Shown here one piece after another: positions 10,419 to 55,881 of a stretch of DNA of 64,000 nt. This stretch comes from a virus. Within the stretch, counting starts at the first letter, position 1. Every line of letters starts with the position of its first letter. Location: IMG/VR virus record IMGVR_UViG_3300033145_001320, positions 1 through 64,000 of that record, one strand, 5' to 3'. Both the position numbers and the translations under genes were made by a program. Below the pieces are notes generated by a model. It had not been told where the DNA came from, did not search any database, and was given only the letters and a program-made list of their open reading frames with translations.

Positions 10419-10595
10419 TTATATATCTAGATCTTTTGGATCAAATAAAATTATTTGTTCTTTGGGTACTTCTTTTTCTTCGGCTACTTTACTTAATGTA
10501 AGTTTCGATAGTTTATATTTCCCTGTTGCCGGGAGAGCATACCAGACATATGACGATGATGATGTGTCTGATGATGTTGAATTATACCAGGTCAT
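10419..10595 (-). CDS. Small hypothetical protein (58 aa), not in the ORF track
   Basis: ATGA overlap with the RNAP beta stop; MTWYNSTSSDTSSSSYVWYALP...FDPKDLDI*. Confidence 0.55.
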   Translation of the reverse strand: MTWYNSTSSDTSSSSYVWYALPATGKYKLSKLTLSKVAEEKEVPKEQIILFDPKDLDI

Positions 10596-13594: not shown

Positions 13595-13606
13595 GATTAG
13601 AACCTC

Positions 13607-13792
13607 CTAATTTGTATATGTCGATTTATACTCGATAAGCTTTTTCTCTAGTCTATCATCTTCGATATAATAGGGATCAACATTTAATGCGAGTGCGTTC
13701 ATTATAAGTTGTGTGAGTCGGAGATCTGGATTTGCTTTCCAGATCTCCTCGACTCTTTTTAATATTCTATCAATTCGTTCTGGATCTCTCAT
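13607..13792 (-). CDS. DUF1040/YihD-like small protein
   Basis: MRDPERI...W...PDLRLTQLI...YYIEDD pattern. Confidence 0.6.
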   Translation of the reverse strand: MRDPERIDRILKRVEEIWKANPDLRLTQLIMNALALNVDPYYIEDDRLEKKLIEYKSTYTN

Positions 13793-16497
13793 GTTATTTT
13801 TTCACCTTTAAGGATTTTATCCATAACTCCTGAATATCTTCCTTCATACAAGATACCTTGTAAGATTGATCTCTTTGGATTTGAAAATGCCATGGCAAGA
13901 ATCCAACTTTCTTGATTTGGCACAGATTGAATGCTATAATAGTCTGGTTTTATTTTATCTCTATTTGGAATCAATCTCCATTTTTGATAATTTTTCCACA
14001 TTAATTGAGCAACAACACATTCAAAATGTACGTGGTATATATCTTTGTCATACACATCAAATAGTTCTTCAACTATGCTGGTGTACGTTTTTCCTCTAAA
14101 TTTGTGAAGTAACTGTGCAACTGAAGCAAGATCCCCAATAATATCTTTTTGTTTCAATGATGGATCATCCGGATTTTGCTCACCTTTAATAACAGCAGAA
14201 CCTGAAGTATGAAAAGTTCGCAAAACTAATTGAGTTCCTCTTTCACCAAGAGTTTGTGCTGCAATAATACCAATGAATCTACTATTCAAATTCCTATATA
14301 AATCTCCATAACACTTTTTACATATCTTTGGATTTTTACAAAGAATCGGACTTCGCAATTCAATTACTTTTCCAATAATGCTTTCGTAATTGTCAGGAGT
14401 TATTTTTTCAAGAGTATCTCCATTTTTATAATATCTGTTAACTAACATTCTTGCTTTTCTTTTACTTTTAACATCAACGCTTAAGAAGTCTGTTGTACCA
14501 CAGTCATCTACATCTTCATCTATTTGTAAATTTGCACATGTGAATATTAGTTTTCTTGAAAGATAACCACTTGTTCCTGTATTAAGAGCTACATCAAGAA
14601 GACCTTTTCTACAACCATATGTTGAATAGAAAAATTCTTCTGGAGTCAAACCTTCAATTAAGGAATTTTTAATTGGCATTTGTAAAATTTCTCCATCGAA
14701 ATTTGAAATGAAGCCACGACTGAATATTAACTGTTTGACTTGATCCCAACTTCCCCTTGCTCCTGATTCAATCATATATGAATATTTAAATCCATCTCTC
14801 ATTCTTTCTGACAATGCATCATCGGAAAGAGCAATCAATTGATCTCTAGTCTCTGGTAGTGAGTAGATATCTTTTTTAATTTCAGCTAAACCATCAAGAG
14901 GAAAATCATCCAATGAAAGAGTACAACCGAATAATGTGGCATACTTAAATCCAACTCTTTTCACATTATCCAATACTTTAATTACTTCTTCGCTTGGGTA
15001 TTTATCTTTTATATCATTCAGAATATCCAAGAGTTTTCCTTTTGCAATTGTTCCTCTTACTAAAGGATAATCATTTGGTAATTGTTTATTAAATTCTGCT
15101 TCACCCCAAGTTATTTTGTTACCTTCGACTTCAATATCGTCTTTACCATTACTAAATTCCGGTAATGTTAAATAATAAATTCCTAAAATTACATCCTGAC
15201 TTGGAGTTGTTGTAAGACTTTCATTCGCTGGACTGTATAAATTCTTTGCAATTGAAATCTTTTCAATTACTTCTTCTTTTGCTTCAGGTGTAATTGGTAT
15301 ATAAACTGCCATCTGATCCCCATCAAAATCTGCATTGAATGGAGGGCATGCTAATGGATGTATTTTGATAACATGATCTAATGTTAATTTAATTTTGAAT
15401 CCTAGCATGCTTAACCTGTGTAATGATGGTTGTCTGTTCAATATGCAATATTCTCCATCCGTTACAGTTTCACACACCCTAAATAATACAGGATTGTTTT
15501 TATCAATACATTCATCAACAAAATCAATAGCTTGATTCAACAGTTTAAATTTTCCAAGTTCTAAAATACGCTTGGCAATGGGTAATTTAAATATTTCTAA
15601 AACCATTAGATAAGGAAGTTTACATTGTTCCAATTCTAATGTTGGGTCAGGAATGATTACAGCTCGACCAGAAAAATCTATTCTCTTACCAAGAATATTT
15701 CCACGAATCAATCCTTCTTTCTTTGCCATCTTTTCAAGAATACGAGTATATAATTCGTTTACATCTTTTTGTAATTGTTTAAAATAAGTATAATAGAGAG
15801 CTTTATCACGATGAATGTCAATGATTGTGCCCGACATTATTTCTTTCTTTGTCAGGATCTGAACATAATATCTGTTGATTTTATCCATCAACTGTTTGCT
15901 CTCTCCTGAGCTTTTTGATGTTGGCCGAAGTTCCGGAGGTAATACAATTATTTGATTAGTCAAAAGATTATCAATATTGTCAAGAACTAGTTTCCATTCA
16001 TCTACTCCATCACCAACATTATCCTCAGCAACTGCCTTTACTAATTCATATATAGCTTCAGTTCTTTCCCATTTTCGGGCACCTTGCGGTATTGTATCTT
16101 CGGATAATGTTACAACAAATTCTTCATCTGTCATATACAAAATACTTTTATCATTTCGCATTAAATCATCTAATGCTTTTTTGAATGTTTTCCCTGCTAG
16201 GGCAACTAATAAATCATAAAAGAGAGGGTTAACAACTTCAATTGGAATTATGATTTTTGCGAATCTTTTTCTTCGTAAATCGCTGTTAACTATATCGACT
16301 TTGCACTCACTGCATTGTCCCCCTTCTTTTGATACTCCATGATACTTGCCACATTGACAGGTATAATTTCTTACTGGACCAAAAATCTGTTCAGAGAATA
16401 ATCCATCCGGATGAAACTTTCTTTTTCCAAATGTTTTTAGAGACGTCACTTCGTCTAAATTTTCACAAAATGTATCGTAATTTAATATTTTTGGCAT
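13789..16497 (-). CDS. rpoC: DNA-directed RNA polymerase beta' subunit, set 1
   Basis: GLFSEQIFGP, Zn site CQCG...CSEC, GKRIDFSGRAVI, LNRQPSLHR, catalytic NADFDGD, SGARG, T.TSGYL.RKL and TQLVLRTFH; 902 aa. Confidence 0.96.
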   Translation of the reverse strand: MPKILNYDTFCENLDEVTSLKTFGKRKFHPDGLFSEQIFGPVRNYTCQCGKYHGVSKEGGQCSECKVDIVNSDLRRKRFAKIIIPIEVVNPLFYDLLVALAGKTFKKALDDLMRNDKSILYMTDEEFVVTLSEDTIPQGARKWERTEAIYELVKAVAEDNVGDGVDEWKLVLDNIDNLLTNQIIVLPPELRPTSKSSGESKQLMDKINRYYVQILTKKEIMSGTIIDIHRDKALYYTYFKQLQKDVNELYTRILEKMAKKEGLIRGNILGKRIDFSGRAVIIPDPTLELEQCKLPYLMVLEIFKLPIAKRILELGKFKLLNQAIDFVDECIDKNNPVLFRVCETVTDGEYCILNRQPSLHRLSMLGFKIKLTLDHVIKIHPLACPPFNADFDGDQMAVYIPITPEAKEEVIEKISIAKNLYSPANESLTTTPSQDVILGIYYLTLPEFSNGKDDIEVEGNKITWGEAEFNKQLPNDYPLVRGTIAKGKLLDILNDIKDKYPSEEVIKVLDNVKRVGFKYATLFGCTLSLDDFPLDGLAEIKKDIYSLPETRDQLIALSDDALSERMRDGFKYSYMIESGARGSWDQVKQLIFSRGFISNFDGEILQMPIKNSLIEGLTPEEFFYSTYGCRKGLLDVALNTGTSGYLSRKLIFTCANLQIDEDVDDCGTTDFLSVDVKSKRKARMLVNRYYKNGDTLEKITPDNYESIIGKVIELRSPILCKNPKICKKCYGDLYRNLNSRFIGIIAAQTLGERGTQLVLRTFHTSGSAVIKGEQNPDDPSLKQKDIIGDLASVAQLLHKFRGKTYTSIVEELFDVYDKDIYHVHFECVVAQLMWKNYQKWRLIPNRDKIKPDYYSIQSVPNQESWILAMAFSNPKRSILQGILYEGRYSGVMDKILKGEKIT

Positions 16498-16500
16498 GTA

Positions 16501-16755
16501 TTATTCTCCTTCTTCTATATCACCAAATTTCTGCATCAAGAATGAGCCAATTTCATAGAAATGTGTTTTAACCCTACTTGCAATCATTCTATCAAGATCA
16601 GGCATTAATTCATGTGCTATGATTTTAACATCATCAATTGCTAAATCAATAAGTCTTTCTCTTAGAGCTTTATCAATAAGTTTTATAATTTCGATTTCTA
16701 ATAAAGACTCATCTTCAACATTCTCAATTTCCTCCGTAAATATGTCTTTAGTCAT
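16501..16755 (-). CDS. Hypothetical acidic protein
   Basis: 84 aa, immediately upstream of beta' set 1. Confidence 0.6.
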   Translation of the reverse strand: MTKDIFTEEIENVEDESLLEIEIIKLIDKALRERLIDLAIDDVKIIAHELMPDLDRMIASRVKTHFYEIGSFLMQKFGDIEEGE

Positions 16756-16960
16756 CGGTTTCCCCTTTTTTATTTATTTTCTCTTTTGTTTTGTTCAAAC
16801 AATTATCAAATACTTCAGAGAAAACTTCAGCTGTTCGTTCAACACATGAGTCAAAAAACTTTCTAGATGATTGTTTTATATTAATTGCCAATTCGTCAAT
16901 AGCATTTAAAGTTGATTCCTTTATTTTTTCTTCGTTAGTGTTTGTTTTGTCTTCCGTCAT
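16748..16960 (-). CDS. Hypothetical protein
   Basis: 70-aa ORF overlapping the next gene. Confidence 0.55.
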   Translation of the reverse strand: MTEDKTNTNEEKIKESTLNAIDELAINIKQSSRKFFDSCVERTAEVFSEVFDNCLNKTKEKINKKGETDD

Positions 16961-16966
16961 TATCAG

Positions 16967-17302
16967 TTACCTCATATTTTTATATTCTATTTCGTCCCAT
17001 GGTGTAAAATAACAATCATCCAAATTAAAAGAGCATAACATTACCCTGATAAAATTAAGAGATTTCTCATTCACTTCCAATTCTCTTATTTTATGTGGAA
17101 TACAAAACTCTCCTGTTTGTGGATCTGCATTTGGATGTGGATTGTTTAAGGTAACTGTGTCAATTTTATCATCAACAGTTTTAATTTTATAATCTCTGAT
17201 TACAAACTTTTTACTGATGTTTGTTATTTCATGGTATTGTTTTTTAAATATAAGTTTGGTTGGGACAATAATCTCCCTAATTCTTTTTGTTTGAATTTTC
17301 AT
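16967..17302 (-). CDS. Mini E2/UBC-like protein
   Basis: HPNADPQTGEFC matches the UBC signature HPN-x7/8-C. Translationally coupled to a ThiF/E1 gene. Confidence 0.55.
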   Translation of the reverse strand: MKIQTKRIREIIVPTKLIFKKQYHEITNISKKFVIRDYKIKTVDDKIDTVTLNNPHPNADPQTGEFCIPHKIRELEVNEKSLNFIRVMLCSFNLDDCYFTPWDEIEYKNMR

Positions 17303-18159
17303 TATGCAGCGCCTGTTTCAGGTATAAGTTCGACCAAATACTTTCCTTTATTTTGTATCAATGAAATAACAAAATTATTAAATTCTTGTTTTGCTACTGC
17401 ATTAGTTAACTGCAATATAAGATCTGTACTTGATTGTAAACTATTCTTTGGCATTGAATATTCAGATAGTGGAAATAAAGATCCTCCGACACAAATATCT
17501 ACATCACTAGTCTTATTTGCTTCCATTATTGGAAGTATTGTATCAGGTAGATTTACAAACTTATCTTCTATAGCTGGACGTTCATATACAATATCACATG
17601 TCTTATTGTCAATATGTTTAACATAATCCAACTCATAATTCTGTATTAATTTATCTTTAACCAAGGTTTCGATTGTATTGTTTGATATTAACATAGCTAC
17701 TAAACTTCCAGCATGTCTAAGATCTTGCTTGTTCAATTGAACAATATATTTACCTTCTGTTTTTATTTTATACTTAACATTCTTTTTACAATCAACCATT
17801 AAATACCTTGATGAAATATATAATCTTACATCTATTTCTCTCCTTCGATCATATGTATAATCTCGACAATCCAAAACTAACTCACATGGAGGGATTTTTG
17901 TTTTCCCTTCAATAAACTTTTCATTTAAAGTTATAATTGTTAAGTCTGGATTTTTATGAGATAATATATCTGTTAATGCTTCTACCTTTGTCATACCAAC
18001 ATCAATTTGTCGATAGATGGAGTTTTTGAGATTCTTTGCTTCAACTTTATCGTGGTCTATAACTATAAGAGTCTCAAGAGTTTCAATATTAGAAAGTGCA
18101 TTGGCAACAAATCCTCCAAGGGTTCCAATGCCAATAACTGCGATTGTTTTATATACCAC
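17302..18159 (-). CDS. ThiF/E1-like adenylation protein (second E1)
   Basis: IAVIGIGTLGG, IDHDKVEAKNL, GMTKVEAL and LDCRD. The C-terminal half is divergent. Confidence 0.85.
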   Translation of the reverse strand: MVYKTIAVIGIGTLGGFVANALSNIETLETLIVIDHDKVEAKNLKNSIYRQIDVGMTKVEALTDILSHKNPDLTIITLNEKFIEGKTKIPPCELVLDCRDYTYDRRREIDVRLYISSRYLMVDCKKNVKYKIKTEGKYIVQLNKQDLRHAGSLVAMLISNNTIETLVKDKLIQNYELDYVKHIDNKTCDIVYERPAIEDKFVNLPDTILPIMEANKTSDVDICVGGSLFPLSEYSMPKNSLQSSTDLILQLTNAVAKQEFNNFVISLIQNKGKYLVELIPETGAA

Positions 18160-18184
18160 GGTCTCATTGTTCTCCTGTTATATT

Positions 18185-18213
18185 AAAATAGGGGGGTCTG
18201 AATCGACCCCCCT
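18185..18213 (-). terminator. Rho-independent terminator after the Ubl gene
   Basis: AGGGGGGTC/GACCCCCCT stem followed by ATTTT on the minus strand. Confidence 0.7.
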
Positions 18214-18237
18214 CTAACACGTTAAGCGTTAATATAG

Positions 18238-18702
18238 TTAGCAGCCTTTCTTTCCTGCGGGTTTCAGGAACTCAAGGTTATCGCTTTGTTTTAGAACATA
18301 GTCTCCGTCAACTTCTTTACCATTGATAAGTCCGGTAGAGAGTTGATCAACATTAAGAACCTCACGTAGAAATTCTCCAACCTGTTTTACGGTACGTCCA
18401 ACAACAGGGAAGTTTCCAGAAGAGGCACCACAAGAAACATGAATAGTAGTGGTAGCACGAGCACCGAATGCTCCGTCAGGTTTGGTTATAACGCTACGAC
18501 CTGTAAATTCAATACCTGTTACAGGTCCACTCTTAGAGATGCTTGCGCTGGCTGGTGCGCCATATTCTGCCATAATGGCAGCGATGACCACATCCTTGGT
18601 TTTCTTTGTCATACCAGGAATATTCAGCTCATATACACACATTCTCTTTAGTTCTCTTGAAGTTTTGTCTTCTAGTTGATCTTTAGTAAAAGTTGTTCCC
18701 AT
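18238..18702 (-). CDS. Ubiquitin-like (beta-grasp) protein with an N-terminal Rho-N/HeH-like helical domain
   Basis: The C-terminal ~70 aa show a ThiS/Ubl pattern (GRTVKQV...LINGKEVDGDYVLKQSDNLEF) ending AGKKG-C. The N-terminus LEDKTSRELKRMC..LNIPGMTKKTKDVVIAAI matches the Rho-N pattern. Lies next to E1/JAB/E2 genes. Confidence 0.8.
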   Translation of the reverse strand: MGTTFTKDQLEDKTSRELKRMCVYELNIPGMTKKTKDVVIAAIMAEYGAPASASISKSGPVTGIEFTGRSVITKPDGAFGARATTTIHVSCGASSGNFPVVGRTVKQVGEFLREVLNVDQLSTGLINGKEVDGDYVLKQSDNLEFLKPAGKKGC

Positions 18703-18721
18703 TTTTAAATCTCCTTCGATT

Positions 18722-19423
18722 TTAGTTTATTGATCTAATTTTAGAGTTTGTATTCATAGTCAGAATATCAAAATAAACTTCTGACCGTTCATAGGACTCT
18801 TTGACAACGGCATTGTAAAAAGTCCAACACATGATAGTTGCAACTCCCAAATTCGCAAAGTAGAGTTGCGGTTCTGACACAGATAGTTCCTCACAGGACA
18901 TTTCGGTAGGTAACTTATCATCGGGATTTGCGATTTCTGGATGGTATTTGCACAAGTCAGGCGTGAGATCTTTGCTTTCTCTTCGCACATACAGTTGTAC
19001 ATTTCCATCTGTAAAATCATTCCCACCGGATATTAAAATAACATTTTTCATTTCTTTACAGTAATTTGATATGACCATCCGGGTTTTGTGATTATCTACA
19101 CACATAAATATAATATCGCCTTCATGAATAACCTCACCAACATTTTCTGGTGTGATATATTCTTCAAAGACGTCAAACCGCAGTCTATCGAATTTAGCCT
19201 CCAATTCAGTCGCTTTTATGTCTGCCTTATTTCCAAGTCTTGTGAACTCTTGTCTTTCATAGTTCTTCGGTTCATAATCATCGCCGTCCACAAGCAAGAT
19301 ATCTGCGGCCATATCTTGTGAAAAGTTCATAAATCGGCATAAGCGTTCAATAAGAATAGACCCAATACCACCAAGCCCAATAACAACAATATTATGGTCG
19401 ACCATCTTTACCTCCAAACACAC
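18722..19423 (-). CDS. E1/ThiF-family activating enzyme (PRTRC-ThiF/Bub-type); true start probably MVDHN near 19402
   Basis: VVIGLGGIGS, DGDDYEPKNYERQ, GNKA, CVDNHKTR, ISGGN, putative catalytic Cys in MSCEE, and QLYFAN. Confidence 0.9.
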   Translation of the reverse strand: MCLEVKMVDHNIVVIGLGGIGSILIERLCRFMNFSQDMAADILLVDGDDYEPKNYERQEFTRLGNKADIKATELEAKFDRLRFDVFEEYITPENVGEVIHEGDIIFMCVDNHKTRMVISNYCKEMKNVILISGGNDFTDGNVQLYVRRESKDLTPDLCKYHPEIANPDDKLPTEMSCEELSVSEPQLYFANLGVATIMCWTFYNAVVKESYERSEVYFDILTMNTNSKIRSIN

Positions 19424-21014
19424 GTCTGAATTTTGACATTAATGATCCATCGTGTCGTGGATCAACAGGAATTTCTGTGATTGGAATTTGTGGTTCACTT
19501 GGATCTGGGATTTTTATTATAGTTTCTTCAATAGCTAGAGCATTTGCTTCTTCTGATTCAGTATCTAAAAATGCTCCTGTATCCATCTCTGATTGAGAGA
19601 TTCTTTCTTCCTCTGTATCAACTCCTTTGATATCTTCTTCCTCAATCAATGAATAGCAAAATGGACATATTGTTTCACCTGCAAAAGCATGGAAAGAATT
19701 TCCACATGTGTTGCATGTGAGATACTCTGTATCCTCTTTAAGACCAGGTTCCTTTTGTAGATGTGACTGGTCAAGTTCGCTAATATAATTCTCAGGCAAG
19801 TCTTCCTCATCTAAAGGAATGAGATAGTCATCCGTTTTGCATATCGGACATAGTGGCATATCAATAGATTCAGTATCCTCAATAACAACAGTTTCACATT
19901 GTTTACAGATATAAATTTCAGGTTCGTAATCTTCACCTGCTTCCTCAGCTAAGAATTTATGACCTCTGAATACACATGTTTGACATGGAATGAACTCATC
20001 ATCTTCGCTATCTGTAACTTCAACCTTATGCATAGGAAACTTAATTACATTTCCAGACTTTGTATCAGGTAACGCTGAAGGTTTTGTAACACCTGGTTTG
20101 GATTGCGGAGGAACAAATCCTGCTTGTTTCCATAAATCAGCATCATAATGACCACCGTAACCACCGTAACCACCATACCCATACCCAGGATAACCAGGAT
20201 ATGTTACTCCACCTGATCTTCCAGCATACTTGTAAGTATAAGTTCCCTTTTCAACCATTTCCATCCATTGAGGAATTACTCTATGATATTTATCAGATAC
20301 ATTAACTGTAAAACGTTTGTCTAGTTTTCGATAGGAATATGAGGATTGTTTGCCTGCTACAATATCTTCAACCATTTTCCCATGTTCCCATTTGAATACT
20401 CGCCTTATCGGTCTGTTTTCCATCTTATCAATATCCACGGTTTTAACTAACCGCTCAACATAGTCTTCTGGATTAATAACAAATCTATGCCCATTTGCAA
20501 CAATCGAAGCTGTGATACTCACATCCTCATCTTTCATGTTTCCAATGGTAATATGAAGACCATCGAAATGTTTTTCATCTGAATCATCAGTTCCAGAATG
20601 AAATGCAGACATATTAGCATGACTGTGAATTGTACCAATCATCTGCATACCATCTATAGTTATTCCTTTATTGTAATCACACGCAGCACCTGTAACCTTT
20701 TGATGAGGCGGGACAATTTTATATACTCTTTTTACTTCATCATAGAAAAGCAATACAATTGCTTCCCCATAATACTCGGCATATACTGCACGAAAGAAAG
20801 CAATAACCCTGGCAAATTGACCACCAGGGATTTTCTTAATGTTCATTCGTGCCATTGAATCGACGCTTTCTAATATAGAAATGTTATCAACTGGGGCAAT
20901 GCTTTCCATTATCCCAACTTTCTTTTTGAGAAATACACCTTCCTTTGCCACAATGTAACATATATCATCGTTTGGAATATCTGTCGTCCCATCATTAACA
21001 TGTACTGGAAACAT
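19392..21014 (-). CDS. JAB/MPN metallopeptidase (Ubl processing/deconjugating) with Gly/Tyr-rich linker and C-terminal Zn-ribbons
   Basis: YGEAIV...GTIHSHANMSAFHSGTDDSDE (E...HSH-x7-S-x2-D JAMM motif), YPGYPGYGYGGYGGYGG, and five CxxC pairs. Confidence 0.9.
   Translation of the reverse strand: MFPVHVNDGTTDIPNDDICYIVAKEGVFLKKKVGIMESIAPVDNISILESVDSMARMNIKKIPGGQFARVIAFFRAVYAEYYGEAIVLLFYDEVKRVYKIVPPHQKVTGAACDYNKGITIDGMQMIGTIHSHANMSAFHSGTDDSDEKHFDGLHITIGNMKDEDVSITASIVANGHRFVINPEDYVERLVKTVDIDKMENRPIRRVFKWEHGKMVEDIVAGKQSSYSYRKLDKRFTVNVSDKYHRVIPQWMEMVEKGTYTYKYAGRSGGVTYPGYPGYGYGGYGGYGGHYDADLWKQAGFVPPQSKPGVTKPSALPDTKSGNVIKFPMHKVEVTDSEDDEFIPCQTCVFRGHKFLAEEAGEDYEPEIYICKQCETVVIEDTESIDMPLCPICKTDDYLIPLDEEDLPENYISELDQSHLQKEPGLKEDTEYLTCNTCGNSFHAFAGETICPFCYSLIEEEDIKGVDTEEERISQSEMDTGAFLDTESEEANALAIEETIIKIPDPSEPQIPITEIPVDPRHDGSLMSKFRRVFGGKDGRP
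20150..20200 (-). repeat. Short coding tandem repeat (YPG/YGG units) inside the JAB gene
   Basis: accaccgta units repeated; encodes YPGYPGYGYGGYGGYGGHY. Confidence 0.7.
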
Positions 21015-23592
21015 TTATTAAACTCCTTTCATCTTTTAACAAGATGTATGGCGATATCTTACTTTCCATAAATAAACCATGAAAGTTTGGCCATGCTTTA
21101 ACTGATTCTAGTTTAGCTTGCTCGCTTTGCCCAATCCGTGGATTAGGAATACAATCAAATACAGTATGATTCTTTACATAATTATCTACCTTATAATCAC
21201 TTGCGTGGGAGGCATATGCCCCAAGGGACACTATACGTGGATTCTTATATTGTTGTACTCTGCTTACCATCCACCCAGTGCTGCTTCTAAAATCAGATAA
21301 ACCCAATAACAAATCTCCACATTGTAATTTGATTTTTGTAATATCAATAGGAGCATGTGCTAATTCTGGCCATTTTTTAGATTTCATAGTTACTCGTTTA
21401 AAGTTTTCCATCATTTCACTATACCATAATGTACAGCAATTAGAGCATAAGACTAATGGGTCCTCTCCACCTGTATCTGTAATAAAACCAATAATTATAT
21501 TCACATCCTTCTTTGGAAAGTGTGGAATATATCCTTTTTCTGCTACAATTTTTGTTCCTGCTGAAACCCTCCCATATTTATTTGTGATTTTTCTTATTTT
21601 TCCAACATGAATATATGCTGCAGTTCCGCCAGATCCAGTACCATTAATATATACAACTTCTGTCAATCTACCTTCCTTATCAGAAAGTACAAAGCTCAAG
21701 CTGTGACTGTCACCATCTGTTTTAAAACCTTCAATAGTTCTAGGTATTAGCATGTTGATAGGATTATCCCAATCTGCATAAACAACTTTATCACCAACAT
21801 TGAATGTTATATCAAGATCAAAACTTTCAATGTGAAGAGTTGTTCCAGAATTGATCAACAGATGTTTTATAACATCTGTTATGGTTGGTGTTGATACAGA
21901 ATAATTATTGTTAAATGCTATCCCTTCTGGTGTTCCCCATGCATACCCGCTTTTAGGATGTCCATCAAATTTATAAGCTAGGAGTCTACGCCCACATCTA
22001 AATACTGGAGACATTAACTTTGTATGTTCTTTATTATATAGTGGTTTTTGTTCTCCAGATTGAGCATCAATAACTATAGGTCGATCTACTTTACCTACTC
22101 CTACTGTTTGAAATTCTAATAATAGATTATTATTTCCTTCATTAACAGTCAGACCAGAAAATTTGACTTCTTGCCCCGAGTTCATAATCCCTCCACTATT
22201 TGTGGAAGTAAAGATAATATATCTATCCTTTTTATTCAGTTCTACTCCATAGTAAGTTGGGTTGTCTACATCAAGTACTTTACCTACTGTATTCTCCAAA
22301 ATGTAGAATGAATTACCAAGGCGTGCTTCAGTTATACCATCTCTTGATTTTCTGATAAAGTAAACTCTTTTATAGACATCCCTACCTAGATGATTTTTAA
22401 TTACAACAATATCATCTTCTTTAATAACTATTCCATTTTTCAATGTACCTTGTTCTTCAAACCTGAGTTTCTTAATAGCGTCATGAATAAAGGTTTTTAC
22501 CTTTGGAGTTAACCTTACATTAATAAGACGTTTGTTTTCAAGCTCAAGTTGAATATAACGGATTTTATCAGAATCATAAAATCCAATGAATGAATTGATA
22601 AATGCGGTTTGTTTCCCCCAAGCAATCGGGTCGCCAACATGAATATAAAAAGTCCTTGTAAGATATATTCCTTGTGCAATATCATAATATAATGACTGTG
22701 TCTTACGTGCTTTTGGTGTTGGTTTTTCCTTCTTACCAGTGTCAACACTTTGTGTAAATATTCTAGATAGCTCTCTATATTGTATATTTCCAGTTGCGGT
22801 ATTATTATAATTAGTTTTGATAGAGGAGATTGTTTCATAGAGAGTTGGTTTTATTCTGATCCAATCAACATTATAAATAAACATTGGATCTATTTTAGAC
22901 ATTGCTTCCCAACCAATATATGTATTTACTCCGGGAATGGAATCATACGCAGTATAGTTATATGTGTAATCTCCATTAAATTCCGCAGACCAAAATACCA
23001 TAATTGCATTTTCGATTCCAGCATTTAAACTCTGTTGTCTTGTGTGTGCTTTGTCTCCAAAACAAATTGATTGTTCTCCGCTTATATTCATCATTGGCAT
23101 TTTTAGCAAGTAATCGCTATACCCTGCCAATCTTGCATTTCGTAGATATACGTGCCCCACCATTAATGATGAATGTTTATCAAACATAAGAATGAAAATT
23201 GTATAAGGAAATGCTAATGTAAAGCTGAATGGTGCGTTATGTCCATCTTTATAATATGCAGCATTGATCCCATACTCTTCAATCTTTCCTTCACCTTCAA
23301 GAGTTTTAAGCTCTCTATCCATACCATAGTTAACTTTTATGGTTCTGTATGCAGGAGGTTCTTCAATAACCACAATATGACCATTTTGTAATTTTTCAAG
23401 GTATCTGCAATTCGGAGGAAGAATCCCTTGTTGTGTAATCCCCGAAGTTATCTTTTGCAAATAACCATCTGTTCTTGTAACATGATGCCTGATCTTCGGT
23501 GTTGCAATGTCTTTCGATGTTTGGGCAAATTCCGAAGTTACATGCTGTACATAATTTGAATTAATTCTTATTTCATCCAACATTTCTGTCAT
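20995..23592 (-). CDS. Prokaryotic E2-like (Prok-E2 D / PRTRC protein B-like) domain fused to a ~600-aa unknown beta-rich extension
   Basis: N-terminal EEPPAYRTI, FPYTIF, LLKMPMMNISGEQSICFG (PxxN...IC.G) and FWSAEFN. Overlaps the JAB gene. Confidence 0.7.
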   Translation of the reverse strand: MTEMLDEIRINSNYVQHVTSEFAQTSKDIATPKIRHHVTRTDGYLQKITSGITQQGILPPNCRYLEKLQNGHIVVIEEPPAYRTIKVNYGMDRELKTLEGEGKIEEYGINAAYYKDGHNAPFSFTLAFPYTIFILMFDKHSSLMVGHVYLRNARLAGYSDYLLKMPMMNISGEQSICFGDKAHTRQQSLNAGIENAIMVFWSAEFNGDYTYNYTAYDSIPGVNTYIGWEAMSKIDPMFIYNVDWIRIKPTLYETISSIKTNYNNTATGNIQYRELSRIFTQSVDTGKKEKPTPKARKTQSLYYDIAQGIYLTRTFYIHVGDPIAWGKQTAFINSFIGFYDSDKIRYIQLELENKRLINVRLTPKVKTFIHDAIKKLRFEEQGTLKNGIVIKEDDIVVIKNHLGRDVYKRVYFIRKSRDGITEARLGNSFYILENTVGKVLDVDNPTYYGVELNKKDRYIIFTSTNSGGIMNSGQEVKFSGLTVNEGNNNLLLEFQTVGVGKVDRPIVIDAQSGEQKPLYNKEHTKLMSPVFRCGRRLLAYKFDGHPKSGYAWGTPEGIAFNNNYSVSTPTITDVIKHLLINSGTTLHIESFDLDITFNVGDKVVYADWDNPINMLIPRTIEGFKTDGDSHSLSFVLSDKEGRLTEVVYINGTGSGGTAAYIHVGKIRKITNKYGRVSAGTKIVAEKGYIPHFPKKDVNIIIGFITDTGGEDPLVLCSNCCTLWYSEMMENFKRVTMKSKKWPELAHAPIDITKIKLQCGDLLLGLSDFRSSTGWMVSRVQQYKNPRIVSLGAYASHASDYKVDNYVKNHTVFDCIPNPRIGQSEQAKLESVKAWPNFHGLFMESKISPYILLKDERSLINVSSTC

Positions 23593-23975
23593 TATTCACC
23601 TCTTAAGTATTTGTACTGTTTCGCATAACCGGTTAATATTTTTTCAGGACGTTGTTCATCAATAACCCAAACCTTTTGCCGCTTCAATCCTGAATCTGGA
23701 TTAGACAATTGTGAGATTGAAATTGTATAGAGAGCTACCATATAAGTATTTTCAGTTTCTCTTTCTAATGTTAAATACGCAACTTCTTTATCATTTCTTC
23801 CAGGAACTTCTAATGCAAGAAAGATATTAGGTCCTACTGGAACATGTGAATCATGTTCAATAGTTTTGATTTCTTCTTCAAGAATTATATCACAGAGTTC
23901 TCTGATCTGTTGAAGTTCATCTTTTCCTTCTACTTTCATTTGTTTAATTAGTTTTGTTAGAATCGTCACTATCAT
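23592..23975 (-). CDS. Hypothetical protein
   Basis: 127 aa, stop/start coupled to the E2-like gene. Confidence 0.6.
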   Translation of the reverse strand: MIVTILTKLIKQMKVEGKDELQQIRELCDIILEEEIKTIEHDSHVPVGPNIFLALEVPGRNDKEVAYLTLERETENTYMVALYTISISQLSNPDSGLKRQKVWVIDEQRPEKILTGYAKQYKYLRGE

Positions 23976-23980
23976 TTACC

Positions 23981-24316
23981 TCACTTCTTTGGTTTGACAT
24001 AATACCTTTCTTCGGCAGTATCCATATATTCAACTCTTTCAAATGGTACAGACCTCCAAGCTTTTTTATCAAGATCATACACATGCATGATTTTGTTTTT
24101 CTGAATAAGTCCTATAATTTTTTGTATATTGACTCCTTTTGGCTTGTCTATATCAGGCACCTTTTTAAAATCAAGTGTGCATCTCATGAGTCTAGTCGAG
24201 CCATCTTTTTTTGTGAATTTGATGCTTACTTCTTTTTCATCATAAACTTTTTTCCAAAATTGTAATGCGCTTACGATTACATTAGCATCAATTTCATTAT
24301 TATCGTTTTCTGCCAT
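23981..24316 (-). CDS. SH3-fold WYL-like phage protein (DUF2693-type)
   Basis: FTKKDGSTRLMRCTL...VYDLDKKAWRSV signature. Confidence 0.75.
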   Translation of the reverse strand: MAENDNNEIDANVIVSALQFWKKVYDEKEVSIKFTKKDGSTRLMRCTLDFKKVPDIDKPKGVNIQKIIGLIQKNKIMHVYDLDKKAWRSVPFERVEYMDTAEERYYVKPKK

Positions 24317-25375
24317 TTATACTTTCTCCCTTTTGTCGGCATGAATTAAATCATCTTCTCCATCGCCCGACTCATCAATATATCGACTCATTAACAAACA
24401 TGAGTGATTGCATAACCTACAAAACTTCTTTTTATCATATGTTATTGTCTCTTGAAAAACATCATTTAATGTTCCTGGATTACTTTTGTCGAAGAGATTT
24501 GTTATAGAAAATACTTTTGGTGTGGTTGTTCCTCTAATCCTTAAACATAATCTGATTGTTCCATCGGCATCAACTGTTATATTATGTATGCCTTTCTCAA
24601 GACCGCAATCCATATTTGAAGGTAACGTGTCAAACATTGCTGGTAATAGCATATCTTTCATATGTATTAATAATGACTTATCATTATACATATCCATTAA
24701 TGTAGATGCTAACTCCCAAGTTGGTTTAACTAATTGTGAATAGTCTCTAATGTTTGAAAAATCATAATATGGATTTTTTGCAATATCAACAAATGTAATA
24801 TCACTGTATATGCCTTCTGAGCTTAGATTTTTAACCAGATTATATAAAAGATGTTGATTTTCGTTCATGACAGTTATCTCTGCAACAACATCTTTTACTT
24901 TACCACTTGTTTGAAGTTCTTTTAATTTTTTAAACCCCCAAATACTTTTCCATATTCGATCTTCTGCAAACCTATCATCAGTATCAAATTGTACTGGATC
25001 CACAGAGCTTGTAAAACCTTCTATATAATCAACTTCCTCAAATAACCGTTTTATTAATGGTTGTATTTCATCAGTATTATTGCTAATAATAGTATAATGA
25101 ATATTATTATCATTACAATAGTTAATTATATCTGCAAGATCTTTCCTTAGTGTTGGCTCGCCTCCATACCAGATATGAAATGCTTCTGGATTATGTTTTT
25201 TGAAATTTGCTAAAGCTTTAATAATAACTTCTAAAGACATTTCATTTTTTATATAATGCTCCATCTTTGGATAGACTGATGGCATATCAGGATAATTTTT
25301 AACGATAGAACAATAATCGCAATTAATATTACATTTACGTGTTATTAACCAATTGACAATTCTAATTTGACTCAT
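24317..25375 (-). CDS. Radical SAM enzyme with C-terminal twitch/SPASM-like cysteines
   Basis: CNINCDYC (CX3CX2C), GGEPTL, C...ITVDADGTIRLC and CRLCNHSC. Confidence 0.88.
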   Translation of the reverse strand: MSQIRIVNWLITRKCNINCDYCSIVKNYPDMPSVYPKMEHYIKNEMSLEVIIKALANFKKHNPEAFHIWYGGEPTLRKDLADIINYCNDNNIHYTIISNNTDEIQPLIKRLFEEVDYIEGFTSSVDPVQFDTDDRFAEDRIWKSIWGFKKLKELQTSGKVKDVVAEITVMNENQHLLYNLVKNLSSEGIYSDITFVDIAKNPYYDFSNIRDYSQLVKPTWELASTLMDMYNDKSLLIHMKDMLLPAMFDTLPSNMDCGLEKGIHNITVDADGTIRLCLRIRGTTTPKVFSITNLFDKSNPGTLNDVFQETITYDKKKFCRLCNHSCLLMSRYIDESGDGEDDLIHADKREKV

Positions 25376-50393: not shown

Positions 50394-50518
50394 TCTTGAA
50401 AGTGTAAATGTATTATGTTTGGGTGAAAAACAGGTATCGAAACCTGCTACCTATTGCTTTAAATGCAATTGCTCTACCAAATGAGCTATTTTCAGAAAAT
50501 ACAAAAAGTCTTTCAAGA
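50394..50518 (-). ncRNA. Array unit 4: scaffold stem enclosing a near-complete tRNA-like body (50420-50494; anticodon-position TTA)
   Basis: TCTTGAAAG-ACTTTT-TGTATT-TTC-[TGAAAA TA GCTC ATTTGGTA GAGC A ATTGC ATTTAAA GCAAT AGGTA GCAGG TTTCGATA CCTGT TTTTCA CCCA]-AACAT-AATACA-TTTACA-CTTTCAAGA. Confidence 0.8.
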
Positions 50519-55879: not shown

Positions 55880-55881
55880 TC

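Follow-up and report, generated by a model that had tools for sequence, protein, structure and literature searches.

The ParB-Related, ThiF-Related Cassette (PRTRC; NCBIfam TIGR03734-03742) is carried by plasmids and integrative elements. Sets of ThiS, ThiF and JAB proteins can act as sulfur carriers, for which a Gly-Gly terminus is usual in ThiS/MoaD, and the CysO-cysteine adduct also looks like a terminal Gly-Cys. In type II CBASS, whose JAB is Cap3, the E2-E1 fusion Cap2 activates the C-terminus of the CD-NTase, and UBE2O is an E2/E3 hybrid that works without a separate E3. Bil, a bacterial system aimed at phages, is composed of BilA (Ubl), BilB (E2), BilC (JAB) and BilD (E1), and its chemistry passes through adenylation and thioesters to transfer to the target (PMC11601596); host Ubl systems (Bil, CBASS) are described there as turning on proteins of the phage or priming immune signals. 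The plasmid PRTRC gene set, so far apparently no more than predicted, probably corresponds to type 6d among the operons of Iyer, Burroughs and Aravind (2006; PMC1779556), a link drawn from Bacteroides thetaiotaomicron as a species common to both; E2s of type 6d are said to bear an invariant His downstream of their catalytic Cys.

Here we describe a locus of six genes within a window of 64,000 nucleotides (the whole stretch analysed, positions 1 to 64,000 of IMG/VR record IMGVR_UViG_3300033145_001320; Table 1). It is a much elaborated relative of the PRTRC set, with a core of PRTRC type that has diverged very far, and probably gives the phage a pathway of its own for conjugating a ubiquitin-like protein. 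Both have an E2-like protein without the classical His, a JAB, a ThiF E1 and a small Gly-ended beta-grasp protein, and both sets travel on mobile elements. In contrast to PRTRC, the phage cassette resides in a jumbo-phage core genome, and the jumbo-phage clade has elaborated the core by barrels on the E2, zinc ribbons on the JAB, a Rho_N/HeH domain on the Ubl and an added unit of a ThiF protein and a mini-E2. ParB and PRTRC_C found no match in the 81.8-kb record, and in the phage E2-like family (alignment, n=49) the catalytic Cys is not followed by an invariant His, unlike in type 6d as described (PMC1779556).

Table 1. Features of the cassette and its surroundings (nucleotide positions in the window; aa, residues of the protein)
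Feature	Nucleotides	Residues	Strand	Remark
Neighbour gene, no assigned function	23592-23975		minus	127 aa; next gene upstream of cassette
E2-like fusion gene	20995-23592		minus	865 aa
E2/UBC-like N-terminal domain	about 22897-23430	aa ~55-232	minus
SH3/Tudor/KOW/BAH-like beta-barrel array	about 21013-22746	aa ~283-860	minus	about 580 residues
JAMM peptidase gene	19392-21014		minus	540 aa
JAB domain		aa ~20-176
C-terminal zinc ribbons		aa 344-453		five CxxC pairs
ThiF E1 gene	18722-19423		minus	233 aa
Ubl gene	18238-18702		minus	154 aa
Rho_N/HeH-like domain of Ubl		aa ~9-44		followed by variable linker
ThiS-like beta-grasp of Ubl		aa ~84-153		ends ...PAGKKG, then single Cys, stop
Hairpin after Ubl gene	18190-18213		minus	terminator-like site, as read from sequence
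Second ThiF gene	17302-18159		minus	285 aa
Rossmann nucleotide-binding domain of second ThiF		aa ~5-110
Mini-E2 gene	16967-17302		minus	111 aa
Two small ORFs between cassette and beta' gene	16501-16755 and 16748-16960
RNA polymerase beta' gene	13789-16497

Gene order and genomic setting

The six genes, described in the sequence-only reading as co-oriented and partly overlapping, all lie on the minus strand with three overlapping junctions (865/540, 540/233 and 285/111), the mini-E2 start overlapping the second ThiF stop by 1 base, and the two small ORFs noted between cassette and RNA polymerase beta' gene are likewise in place. On the other side the E2 fusion gene overlaps by 1 base with a neighbour gene, which was found in 41 of 68 loci fetched through E1 and not in the minimal cassettes of distant relatives; its protein had no match in PHROG. 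The co-orientation thus holds, but the cassette is not the single block first supposed, since it is split into two units by a conserved GC-rich hairpin directly 3' of the Ubl gene, with a 9-bp stem (7 G-C pairs) and an A/T-rich tail. A strong hairpin, defined as a 70-nt fold of -12 kcal/mol or lower, follows the Ubl gene in 50 of the 56 distinct relatives, the stem sequence differing among them; the median there is -22.9, as compared with medians of -5.2 to -11.0 for folds after seven other genes.

The source record of 81,767 bases covers about 26% of the genome, and partner genes absent from it may sit elsewhere. It holds a terminase large subunit and two RNA polymerase beta/beta' gene sets, which confirms that the contig is viral. 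A synteny survey of related phages, suggested along with the first reading, was performed with loci fetched through RNA polymerase beta', independently of the cassette, and counted loci that offered 9000 bases or more upstream; all six genes were found upstream of beta' in 31/31 such viral contigs, and the set was whole in 47 of the 68 E1-fetched loci. This arrangement is far beyond chance. The cassette is a fixed core-genome block of an uncultured jumbo-phage clade (sediment phage), next to RNA polymerase genes and in a setting of replication and transcription genes, not virion genes. That such a set is unusual in a phage was overstated, for PRTRC-type E2/JAB/E1/Ubl sets recur in dozens of viral contigs, and a cultured Bacillus jumbo phage has an annotated JAB-ThiF pair. 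Among relatives in metagenome-assembled genomes, 28 of 34 loci contain the four parts together, arranged as E2-JAB-E1-Ubl or Ubl-E2-JAB-E1.

The fixed position bears on the idea that the phage enzymes act on host Ubl immunity such as Bil or type II CBASS, either by the JAB stripping host conjugates or by a decoy Ubl that, loaded on host machinery or phage proteins, blocks host tagging. Counter-defence genes are typically patchy, whereas this cassette is invariably present and syntenic, and stripping needs a lone peptidase, yet the whole E1/E2/Ubl set is kept. Such genes are common in phages, host Ubl systems do target phages or prime immunity in the accounts given in PMC11601596, and by PADLOC the second ThiF is similar to the E1 portion of E1-E2 fusions of the Cap2 type. 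The JAB, however, had no match among PADLOC models at E <= 0.1 and is PRTRC_A-like, not Cap3- or BilC-like, and the 233-aa E1 matched BilD at just 0.006; together with the fixed core block, this leaves the earlier proposal that the JAB counters host Ubl defence unsupported, and we consider a counter-defence role of the cassette unlikely. The sequence link to Bil is weak altogether, as PADLOC gave none for JAB, E2 or Ubl, although both systems have four separate parts and the phage-carried cassette, by analogy, would be expected to share the Bil chemistry as outlined in PMC11601596.

The Ubl and the enzymes of the first unit

The motifs that had been named in the E2-like, JAMM, E1, Ubl and mini-E2 proteins are all present and conserved across relatives, and the catalytic residues of the core activities are kept even in relatives diverged to less than 25% identity (14-26% by alignment in the most diverged rows). 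In the Ubl family (n=51) Rho_N was matched by 36 members (best 3.8e-13), TGS by 29 (1.2e-8), ThiS by 26 (8.1e-10) and Ub-Mut7C by 6, the window's own Ubl giving weak family matches alone, and G92, G102, G128, K152 and G153 are invariant in 51/51. After the last ...KG there is no further residue in 37 of 66 relatives, one Cys in 18 and another 1-16 residues in 8, with the motif absent in 3; the tails include C, R, F, DG, LA, IDVGL and others, and the JAB gene is always near the Ubl gene. Judged from these sequences, a fixed ...KG end with a variable tail and a JAB gene nearby represents the classic signature of a precursor.

The JAMM protein, in which a Gly/Tyr-rich linker joins the JAB domain to the zinc-ribbon region, matches Prok-JAB (Pfam, 1.2e-5; 51/52 relatives) and PRTRC_A (NCBIfam, 2.7e-10, profile positions 29-187 of 192), and E84, H130, H132, S140 and D143 are invariant in 52/52. 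Its C-terminal matches are generic zinc ribbons, HypA-like in 12/52, with RING-type families in just 1-2/52; across 66 relatives, anywhere from 0 to 7 CxxC pairs are present. The 233-aa E1 matches Pfam ThiF (2.8e-18) and PRTRC_ThiF (8.4e-11, positions 12-235 of 245). Both PRTRC matches span nearly the full profile, with scores far under the curated cut-offs (40.1 vs 101.8 bits and, for PRTRC_ThiF, 41.7 vs 144.75). In an alignment of 68 E1 sequences, at least 90% retain each of the GxGGxG glycines (G16, G18, G19, G21), D46, R57, Q58, C108-V109-D110-N111 and C177, and the conserved C177, previously noted within 'MSC', is the candidate catalytic cysteine.

The 865-aa protein falls below threshold for Prok-E2_D (Pfam; 0.0015-0.0068, 16.6-18.7 bits vs a cut-off of 25), which 37 of its 49 relatives match (best 3.7e-8); PRTRC_B is matched by 10/49, and P80, P129, N169 and C177 are invariant in alignments of 49 and 48 sequences. 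Distant relatives consist of the N-terminal part alone (~240-340 aa). In an AlphaFold2 model (pLDDT 90.6, pTM 0.70) residues 55-232 align with UBE2D2/UbcH5B (VIA-align, Z 4.7/4.5, 116/118 residues), a modest match (Z 4.5-4.7) inside an 865-residue model. The C-terminal barrels resemble BAH, Tudor, CdnL/CarD/Mfd and KOW domains (VIA-align, Z 4.6-6.6), and Foldseek found Pol II-DSIF chains (4e-6), SETDB1 Tudor (probability 0.94-0.98) and UBE2O (7un3_A, 9.4e-4). As in UBE2O, the E2-like domain is linked to SH3-like barrels within one chain, a likeness that may be convergent; the protein departs from eukaryotic E2s in that its E2 domain is N-terminal, has insertions and bears Pro-x-x-Asn instead of His-Pro-Asn.

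From conserved residues and family relationships the following course may be proposed for unit 1. The JAMM peptidase would trim the short variable tail of the Ubl (one Cys here) to expose Gly153, which the E1 would adenylate before holding the Ubl on its Cys177 as a thioester. The Ubl would then pass to Cys177 of the E2 domain in the 865-aa protein, with Asn169 acting as the classical 'HPN' asparagine, and the fused barrel array would select the substrate, be it a host or a phage protein, so that a separate E3 would not be needed. The JAB may remove the tag as well, and through its Rho_N/HeH domain the Ubl may bring itself, or the protein it is attached to, to nucleic acid. The claim that the phage runs its own conjugation is therefore retained as the best-supported, and probable, reading; the kit, earlier called 'complete', is putatively so.

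The same parts could serve a sulfur carrier, a ThiS-like protein that is adenylated by ThiF, thiocarboxylated and gives its sulfur to nucleic-acid or small-molecule modification; the JAB would then either trim the precursor or free a Cys-type adduct, like Mec+ on CysO. The phage set shares with ThiS/ThiF, MoaD/MoeB and CysO/Mec+ a ThiS-like beta-grasp protein with C-terminal Gly, an adenylating enzyme of the ThiF family and a JAMM peptidase for trimming the carrier; the ThiS matches in about half of the Ubl family, the encoded Gly-Cys ends and the best scores of both E1-like proteins against ThiF/MoeB equivalogs (NCBIfam, far under cut-offs) point the same way, as does a radical SAM gene three genes upstream in the cassette's gene string. 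However, that gene was not found in the minimal cassettes of distant relatives, the Ubl ends with a single Gly after Lys, not Gly-Gly, and is fused to a domain of nucleic-acid-binding type, and its freely varying tails are better explained by precursor trimming than by a Cys adduct. Moreover, the fixed parts of the cassette include two E2-like proteins with invariant cysteines, useless to a sulfur relay. A search of the 81.8-kb record for rhodanese, cysteine desulfurase and PP-loop ATPase found none of them, with controls matching in 13-14 of 14 genomes, and neither E1-like protein has a C-terminal rhodanese domain, which Iyer et al. (2006; PMC1779556) likewise noted to be lacking in E1s of JAB/E2-linked operons. 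A sulfur carrier is thus an improbable account of the cassette.

It is more doubtful still that the JAB cleaves a Ubl-bearing precursor during assembly of the virion or a replication complex, without conjugation, as lambda gpK (JAB and NlpC/P60) and gpI (Ubl domain) would exemplify, and that the ThiF-like and E2-like proteins are structural or regulatory relics. Phage-encoded JAB/Ubl pairs do act in lambdoid tail assembly according to PMC1779556 and the conference report PMC12908700, and the Ubl here has an extra N-terminal domain. Yet the lambda pair belongs to a tail module without E1 or E2, where a structural protein bears the Ubl as its N-terminal domain, whereas the Ubl described here is a protein by itself, C-terminal in its beta-grasp and with a short tail at most, and is encoded in a replication/transcription block. 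The E1 and both E2-like proteins also retain their catalytic residues over deep divergence.

The second ThiF protein and the mini-E2

The six-part anatomy first outlined is upheld by family searches, conservation and two confident structure models, except for the label 'second E1'. The protein does belong to the ThiF family (Pfam ThiF 7.1e-16; PADLOC E1-E2 models of Cap2 type down to 1e-11), and D35, K58 and C98 are kept in 52/52 members, D97 in 51 and R99 and R105 in 50. It is probably not a standard E1, because neither the Arg-Gln (positions 46-47, N 34/S 38; 50-51, R 30/Q 21; n=52) nor any Cys beyond C98, which adjoins the Mg-binding Asp, is conserved (C124 in 34/52). Its C-terminal 110 residues gave no match to Ubl families, to solved chains or to the cassette's Ubl profile. 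The end, ...ELIPETGAA, is near-invariant (G283 and A285 in at least 90% of 52), follows a ...TG(A/G)A pattern common to the family, and all proteins stop there.

The mini-E2 gene accompanies the second ThiF gene in 50/51 loci. Its product (n=43) has P14, H56 and C67 in every member and P57, N58 and P101 in at least 90% of them, giving the HPN-x8-Cys motif of eukaryotic E2s. Its AlphaFold2 model (pLDDT 96.7, pTM 0.86) consists of a beta-meander, the HPN loop, Cys67 and one long helix, and it aligns to UBC core residues ~30-140 of many E2s; as modelled, the protein is a truncated UBC core that lacks both the N-terminal helix and the final two helices of classical E2s. All 50 matches listed in a structure search were E2 entries (Z 4.1-5.2, 84-91 residues, rmsd 3.2-4.5), the Z-scores, up to 5.2, lying under the level that the search tool calls safe. 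In a Foldseek-independent search 25 of the best 26 matches were E2/UBC entries (Z 3.3-4.9), and Foldseek itself gave weak E-values (best 0.16). Sequence searches were not significant, as 1/43 members touched Pfam UQ_con (0.0059) and the mini-E2 profile did not match the E2-like profile (hhalign probability 0.17).

In unit 2 the ThiF protein, with neither Cys nor Arg-Gln, would most likely be a scaffold or non-catalytic partner, at a guess comparable to the domain of eukaryotic E1s that recruits the E2 or to their inactive adenylation domain. By loading the HPN-Cys mini-E2 it would provide a second outlet for the same Ubl towards other targets. Among PADLOC models this ThiF is closest to the E1 part of Cap2-type ones, and its translational coupling to an E2-like protein is also Cap2-like. 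The phage has, in contrast to type II CBASS, no CD-NTase or effector, its E1 and E2 are encoded separately with the E1 gene first, and its second ThiF has no conserved catalytic Cys. Cap2 chain 7to3_A is among the structural matches of the mini-E2 (Z 3.1), and the invariant short C-terminal tail of the second ThiF may recall, by analogy, the C-terminus of a CD-NTase.

Genomic setting and linkage of the cassette

Six co-oriented genes occupy positions 16967-23592 on the minus strand of the window, closely packed and in part overlapping; the ORF listing agrees with the arrangement and coordinates proposed in the sequence-only reading. They are transcribed in the order E2-like protein (865 aa), JAB peptidase (540 aa), E1 (233 aa) and Ubl (154 aa), followed after a 78-base gap by ThiF2, a second ThiF protein (285 aa), and mini-E2 (111 aa); downstream of the mini-E2 gene there are two small ORFs and then the genes for RNA polymerase beta' and beta. 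The window is AT-rich (G+C about 30-38%) and also encodes the terminase large subunit, SbcCD, a helicase, topoisomerase II and two RNA polymerase beta/beta'-like sets, both of them large and with subunits unsplit in this phage. Two sets are likewise found in jumbo phages that have virion and non-virion polymerases. The window is the first 64 kb of an IMG/VR virus record, and the completeness estimate of CheckV puts this 81,767-base record at about 26% of the genome, which implies a jumbo phage with a genome of roughly 300 kb. A tRNA with anticodon tta, called by ARAGORN, would decode the stop codon TAA, and the ORFs of the region look normal under table 11. Two DNA runs labelled as sediment metagenomes contain 0.43 and 0.29 of the sampled words of the window, and no RNA data containing the window are listed among the runs.

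Coordinates of features in the window and in related loci (L labels denote loci of relatives)
Feature	Sequence	Coordinates	Strand	Details
E2-like gene	window	20995-23592	-	865 aa
JAB gene	window	19392-21014	-	540 aa
E1 gene	window	18722-19423	-	233 aa
Ubl gene	window	18238-18702	-	154 aa
Hairpin	window	18190-18213	-	9 bp, G+C-rich, A/T-rich tail; directly 3' of Ubl gene
ThiF2 gene	window	17302-18159	-	285 aa
mini-E2 gene	window	16967-17302	-	111 aa
RNA polymerase set 1	window	10592-16497	-	beta-like + beta'-like, 1000 + 902 aa
RNA polymerase set 2	window	51791-58905	-	beta-like + beta'-like, 1362 + 1007 aa
tRNA, anticodon tta	window	50421-50495	-	ARAGORN
Radical SAM gene and two small genes	window	23592-25375	-	352 aa; 111 and 127 aa; adjoin cassette
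Inserted gene, 188-215 aa	L002	14155-14721		
Inserted gene, 188-215 aa	L003	7189-7788		
Inserted gene, 188-215 aa	L005	15336-15983		
Inserted gene, 188-215 aa	L006	15341-15907		
Inserted gene, 188-215 aa	L007	15331-15918		
Three tandem Ubl genes	L055	983-2353		157, 126, 129 aa
Tandem E2-like genes	L076	2052-6850		785 + 814 aa
Tandem E2-like genes	L062	4623-7014		451 + 322 aa

The 865-aa protein used as a query retrieved 7 viral loci at 42-48% identity, in all of which the six genes, their order and their flanks are kept. An E1 alignment reached further, to 68 viral loci with identity from 81% down to 27%, and gene presence, scored by iterated profile searches of their ORFs, was 63 for the E2-like protein, 65 for JAB, 67 for E1, 63 for Ubl, 51 for ThiF2 and 50 for mini-E2, so that 47 loci carry all six genes and 58 carry the first four. 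Among the 10 loci without some core part, the cassette lies near the locus end in L021, L055, L056, L058, L070 and L075, and the profile searches detected no Ubl in L071-L074, the most distant of the 68. Since these loci had been collected via the cassette itself, an independent set of 49 was fetched by RNA polymerase beta' (59-82% identity). Mini-E2 was present in 43/43 of those with at least 1200 bases of room upstream and mini-E2 with ThiF2 in 43/43 with at least 2300 bases; these two together with Ubl and E1 were found in 38/38 with at least 4200 bases. The survey of synteny proposed in the sequence-only reading finds all six genes upstream of beta' in 31/31 loci with room of at least 9000 bases. 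As the genes are present at every beta' locus that has room for them, the cassette is a fixed core block of the phage clade and not an accessory island. Among deposited phages megablast found no close DNA relatives, E1 matched only 4 records (27-29% identity) and beta' gave nothing above 29.5% identity in 180 records, and therefore the clade has no cultured relative in the deposited-phage collection.

The core genes are separated from ThiF2 and mini-E2 by a hairpin. At the same spot in relatives, a folding energy of -12 kcal/mol or lower is reached by 50 of the 56 distinct 70-nt segments that follow the Ubl gene (median -22.9), compared with medians of -5.2 to -11.0 for seven other genes of the region, where 2-21 of 40-57 segments reach that level. 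The hairpin is kept in structure, not in sequence (positions in L009-L076), a clear T-run is missing from many copies, and it may be a terminator for a phage polymerase or an RNA-stabilising element. The E2-JAB-E1-Ubl unit thus closes with a hairpin of terminator-like or stabilising type, and ThiF2 and mini-E2 form a separate, stop/start-coupled pair.

Several variations surround this layout. An additional gene stands between the Ubl hairpin and the ThiF2 gene in 5 of 6 close relatives; it is missing in the window and in L004, and its product has no conserved C-terminal Gly. Tandem copies of the Ubl gene (one locus) and of the E2-like gene (two loci) also occur. On the other side of the cassette, the radical SAM gene and the two small genes have gapless junctions or one-base overlaps and are co-conserved in 41-44 of the 68 loci; all three are missing from the minimal cassettes of distant relatives.

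The four core proteins

JAB carries a complete JAMM/MPN+ signature, the catalytic Glu and the H-x-H-x7-S-x2-D zinc site (E84, H130, H132, S140 and D143, invariant in 52 sequences). Prok-JAB (PF14464) matches the window protein at 25.5 bits, against a cut-off of 25 (E 1.2e-5), and 51 of 52 relatives, and PRTRC_A of the PRTRC system (ParB-Related, ThiF-Related Cassette) matches at E 2.7e-10 and 40.1 bits over profile positions 29-187 of 192. CxxC pairs number 0-7 across relatives, with five in the window protein; they score as generic zinc ribbons and are an addition of this clade to the JAB. A RING-type E3 in the C-terminus of JAB was considered and rejected, as RING-type families touch 1-2 of 52 relatives and generic zinc ribbons dominate.

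E1 is a plain ThiF domain (PF00899, 66.4 bits against a cut-off of 28.1, E 2.8e-18), in which at least 90% of 68 sequences keep each of G16, G18, G19, G21, R57, Q58, D110 and C177. The protein has the motifs of the E1/ThiF/MoeB family, that is a Gly-rich nucleotide loop, Arg-Gln and a Mg-binding Asp, plus the Cys expected of a conjugating E1; from its spacing after D110, C177 is predicted to lie in the crossover loop. PRTRC_ThiF matches at 41.7 bits (E 8.4e-11, profile positions 12-235 of 245), and on this score E1 is read as a distant relative of PRTRC_ThiF and not as an equivalog.

The Ubl relatives (n=51) give 26 matches to ThiS, 29 to TGS, 6 to Ub-Mut7C and 36 to Rho_N, and the window's own Ubl has no family match above cut-off; in a profile search of solved structures it matched the Rho N-terminal domain alone (0.0061). 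Ubls of distant relatives are only 71-137 aa long, and the Rho_N/HeH-type N-terminal domain is a gain on the Ubl of the clade. K152-G153 is invariant in the 51 relatives. After this ...KG motif (n=66) there is a stop in 37, a single Cys in 18, including the window, and another tail in eight (R, F, DG, LA, GR, IDVGL, one of 8 and one of 16 residues), the motif being missing in 3. Family matches and alignment together thus indicate a beta-grasp modifier with a conserved C-terminal Gly, exposed or exposable, and the C-terminus looks like that of a precursor trimmed by the adjoining peptidase.

In the E2-like protein, only P80, P129, N169 and C177 are invariant in 49 sequences with identity down to 16%. 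The local consensus, Pro-Leu-x-Asn-Ile-x3-Gln-x-Ile-Cys-x-Gly, mirrors the His-Pro-Asn...Cys loop of E2 enzymes minus the His. Prok-E2_D (PF14460) matches the window protein at 16.6-18.7 bits (E 0.0068), under the gathering cut-off of 25 bits, and 37 of 49 relatives at E <= 0.01 (best 3.7e-8); for PRTRC_B the window protein gives no match and 10 of 49 relatives do (best 3.4e-5). Distant relatives have only a 243-342-aa protein that matches the N-terminal ~300 residues, and these residues are accordingly the ancient part of the protein. Of 30 ESM Atlas feature hits, 26 were clusters of 240-300-aa proteins, mostly viral, in which 19-30% of members carry Prok-E2_D. For the E2 domain, the profile search of solved structures stayed below significance (best E 0.75).

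A confident AlphaFold2 model of the full-length protein, built from 48 sequences (pLDDT 90.6, pTM 0.70), aligns at residues 55-232 with UBE2D2/UbcH5B (116/118 residues, rmsd 4.8/5.2) at Z 4.7/4.5, modest values that come from a search with the whole 865-residue model, where the domain searched singly would score higher. Residues ~283-860 consist nearly throughout of beta structure and repeatedly match small SH3-like barrels, namely BAH (Z 6.6, 6.0 and 5.7), Tudor, the RNA-polymerase-binding domains of CdnL (5.4), Mfd (5.3) and CarD (5.0), and the KOW domains of NusG and DSIF (Z 4.6-4.8). The top Foldseek matches are chains of the Pol II-DSIF complex (4e-6), which we take to be Spt5 with its KOW array, and next come the triple Tudor of SETDB1 (probability 0.94-0.98) and UBE2O (9.4e-4). 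Since the SH3-like barrel is a common fold, these matches mean an array of reader-type barrels, not RNA polymerase binding.

ThiF2 and mini-E2

The second unit is confined to the RNA-polymerase-linked clade, where mini-E2 lies beside the ThiF2 gene in 50 of 51 loci. ThiF2 is clearly ThiF-like (PF00899, 58.5 bits, 7.1e-16), and the E1 part of the PADLOC E1-E2 (Cap2-type) models matches it at 1e-11, versus 4.9e-8 for E1. Residues D35, K58, D97, C98, R99 and R105 are kept in 50-52 of 52 sequences, but Arg-Gln is not conserved (R in 30 and Q in 21 of 52, or N/S at the aligned positions), and the 52 sequences share no conserved Cys beyond C98. The description of ThiF2 as a second E1 therefore does not hold at the level of catalytic motifs, as both Arg-Gln and the catalytic Cys are lost; ThiF2 is probably a family member by sequence and not a standard E1 by function.

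The end of ThiF2 is near-fixed (...E-L-I-P-E-T-G-A-A), at least 90% of 52 sequences having G283 and A285, and every protein stops there. Because of this invariant ...TG(A/G)A end a fused second Ubl was looked for, and it found no support: 0 of 44 C-terminal segments match any Pfam Ubl family, the best PDB profile match has E 0.49, and hhalign to a Ubl profile gives a probability of 0.10. The ESM Atlas held no usable match for this C-terminus. A search for short stand-alone ThiF2 tails returned 3 proteins of 120-135 aa on 1-2 kb contigs, which are probably cut fragments.

Mini-E2 belongs to a sizeable family, with 362 representatives at E <= 0.001 and 222 at <= 1e-10 among 1.84 billion, mostly of 105-160 aa. 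Among 43 sequences, H56 and C67 never vary and at least 90% have P57 and N58; Pfam UQ_con matches 1 of the 43 (0.0059). In the very confident model (pLDDT 96.7, pTM 0.86) a beta-meander is followed by a loop that contains His56-Pro-Asn, by Cys67, and by two helices, one short and one long. Most Foldseek matches are E2 enzymes, at weak E values (best 0.16). In a Foldseek-independent search, E2/UBC entries take 25 of the top 26 rows at Z 3.3-4.9 (77-93 residues aligned in most, 74 and 80 in two), including bacterial BubB (Z 3.9), with Cap2 further down (Z 3.1), and on re-alignment of the Foldseek candidates all 50 listed rows are E2 entries at Z 4.1-5.2, all of these being values under 8, which by the warning of the structure-search tool can reflect a common arrangement. 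The aligned range, about residues 30-140 of E2s, implies that mini-E2 corresponds to a UBC core lacking helix one and the final two helices. The mini-E2 profile reached no solved structure significantly: E2 chains scored E 0.31 and 0.77, the best match was a designed repeat protein with the same short motif, and in BFVD the model had no match at E <= 0.001, the best being giant-virus E2s (E 0.2 and 0.64). A UBC fold is moderately supported for mini-E2, mainly since the invariant HPN-x8-C sits at the expected place of the model.

Homology between the E2-like protein and mini-E2 was considered as well and rejected (hhalign probability 0.17, alignment limited to the Asn...Cys motif). Three proteins (P0009, P0072 and P0099) contain tandem mini-E2 copies, one with HPN...Cys and the other without the Cys, which recalls the pairs of active E2 and inactive UEV.

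Predicted mechanism and relation to known systems

Judged by residue conservation, by the families involved and by the linkage of the genes, the most likely mechanism would begin with JAB trimming the C-terminus of the Ubl. E1 would adenylate the Ubl and then hold it as a thioester on its Cys177, from which it would be handed to Cys177 of the E2-like protein, the barrel array picking the substrate. For ThiF2, which lacks both Arg-Gln and the catalytic Cys, the best reading is that of a partner with no catalysis of its own or of an E2 recruiter, which would make mini-E2 available as a second outlet. A role in processing only, like that of lambda gpK/gpI, would leave the conserved catalytic residues of both E1 and E2 unexplained. 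A sulfur-carrier system, in which the Ubl would not be conjugated, is weakened by the two E2-like proteins fixed in the cassette and by the lack of any rhodanese, cysteine desulfurase or PP-loop ATPase in the 81.8-kb record, even if that record is only a fragment and host enzymes could serve.

Protein conjugation remains the preferred reading, and it can be extended to two-branch, eukaryote-style tagging of nucleic-acid-bound machinery, an extension that we consider improbable. In its first branch, the Rho_N/HeH-bearing Ubl would be attached with no E3 by an E2 that carries a KOW/Tudor/CarD-like array. In the second, the ...TG(A/G)A tail of ThiF2 would be activated and passed to the HPN-Cys mini-E2, ThiF2 doubling as modifier. 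For the latter there is an analogy in type II CBASS, where the CD-NTase plays a modifier-like role. In this extension, the transcription apparatus encoded next to the cassette could be the target of such tagging.

The sequence-only reading had also suggested that the phage counters host Ubl-based immunity. No positive evidence speaks for this: JAB has no PADLOC match, Cap3 of type II CBASS included, the one match to Bil is BilD on E1 at only 0.006, and the cassette is core, not patchy. Bil membership is not indicated either, given that the E2-like, JAB, Ubl and mini-E2 proteins have no PADLOC match and that E1 is here a single domain. The E1 part of the type II CBASS E1-E2 models is matched by E1 and by ThiF2; neither is fused to an E2.

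All four core proteins point to the PRTRC families (NCBIfam TIGR03734-03742), weakly yet consistently, and none reaches a curated cut-off (144.75 bits for PRTRC_ThiF and 101.8 for PRTRC_A, against 41.7 and 40.1). There is no ParB-related protein of the PRTRC system in or near the cassette: neither TIGR03734 nor Pfam ParB_N matches at E <= 0.01 in the 81,767-base record, about 26% of the genome, under searches that found them in 8 and 11 of 14 control genomes. PRTRC_C likewise has no match at E <= 0.01 in this record. Mobile-element operons of Ubl, JAB, E1-like and E2-like genes have been predicted before, and the best fit is type 6d, with an E2-like protein without the classical His and a JAB with an extra N-terminal domain (Iyer et al., 2006; PMC1779556). 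Type 6d is also said to keep one His downstream of the Cys in all members, and the E2-like family of the phage has no such residue.

A PRTRC-like theme is already visible in phages from public records, as in the Bacillus jumbo phage vB_BauM_KLEB27-3 a "PRTRC_A domain-containing protein" adjoins a ThiF gene; "KLEB27-3" as a literature term matched no paper. In the searchable literature, in part at the level of listed titles and abstracts, no E1/E2 cascade run by a phage surfaced for jumbo phages in combination with ubiquitin, JAB or ThiF. A comparative review of jumbo phages (PMC7824862) does not mention JAB, ThiF, Ubl, E1-like or E2-like, its two mentions of "ubiquitin" being unrelated, and passages of PMC11879866 and PMC12908700 hold nothing on such a cassette, being irrelevant or concerned with lambda gpK/gpI. 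PRTRC occurs in 45 papers of the searchable literature, mentioned only in annotations; among the 20 listed, two name it in the abstract, their subjects being rhizobia or a genomic island, and no title names it. What sets the phage cassette apart is its elaboration (the E2-barrel fusion, HeH-Ubl and zinc-ribbon JAB), the unit of ThiF and HPN-Cys mini-E2, and its core status by the RNA polymerase genes.

To our knowledge, bacterial Ubl conjugation has so far been shown only as anti-phage defence (type II CBASS, Bil) or in vitro (Bub). The same chemistry would here stand on the side of the virus, as an invariant core module across a giant-phage clade, and this core status implies a need for protein tagging in the cycle of the phage itself. 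The parts are compact and tractable: the small E1, a predicted UBC core of 111 aa that bears the HPN-Cys signature of eukaryotes, an E2-like protein with a built-in array for substrates, and a Ubl fused to a domain of nucleic-acid-binding type. The cassette could open a first way to learn what the PRTRC family, predicted in 2006, does. If its targets prove to be transcription or nucleoid proteins of host or phage, this would amount to a new kind of takeover by phages.

Relatives also appear in species-representative genomes, where the E1 alignment retrieved 34 loci, all metagenome-assembled and of scattered taxonomy. The four core genes are present in 28 of them, in the order E2-JAB-E1-Ubl or Ubl-E2-JAB-E1, and unit 2 in only 2, both with the flanks of the clade (from radical SAM to RNA polymerase). 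Bin labels include Thermoplasmatales, Saccharibacteria, Planctomycetota, Gammaproteobacteria and others. One of the unit-2 loci, L078 (DAOVGR010000079.1), is in a bin labelled as a Thermoplasmatales archaeon; as this contig and the viral IMGVR_UViG_3300033144_004982 are both 34,718 bases long, a phage contig was seemingly binned into an archaeal genome. Two loci may be truly chromosomal, as their contigs are very long (4.78 Mb, Planctomycetota; 957 kb, Paceibacterota).
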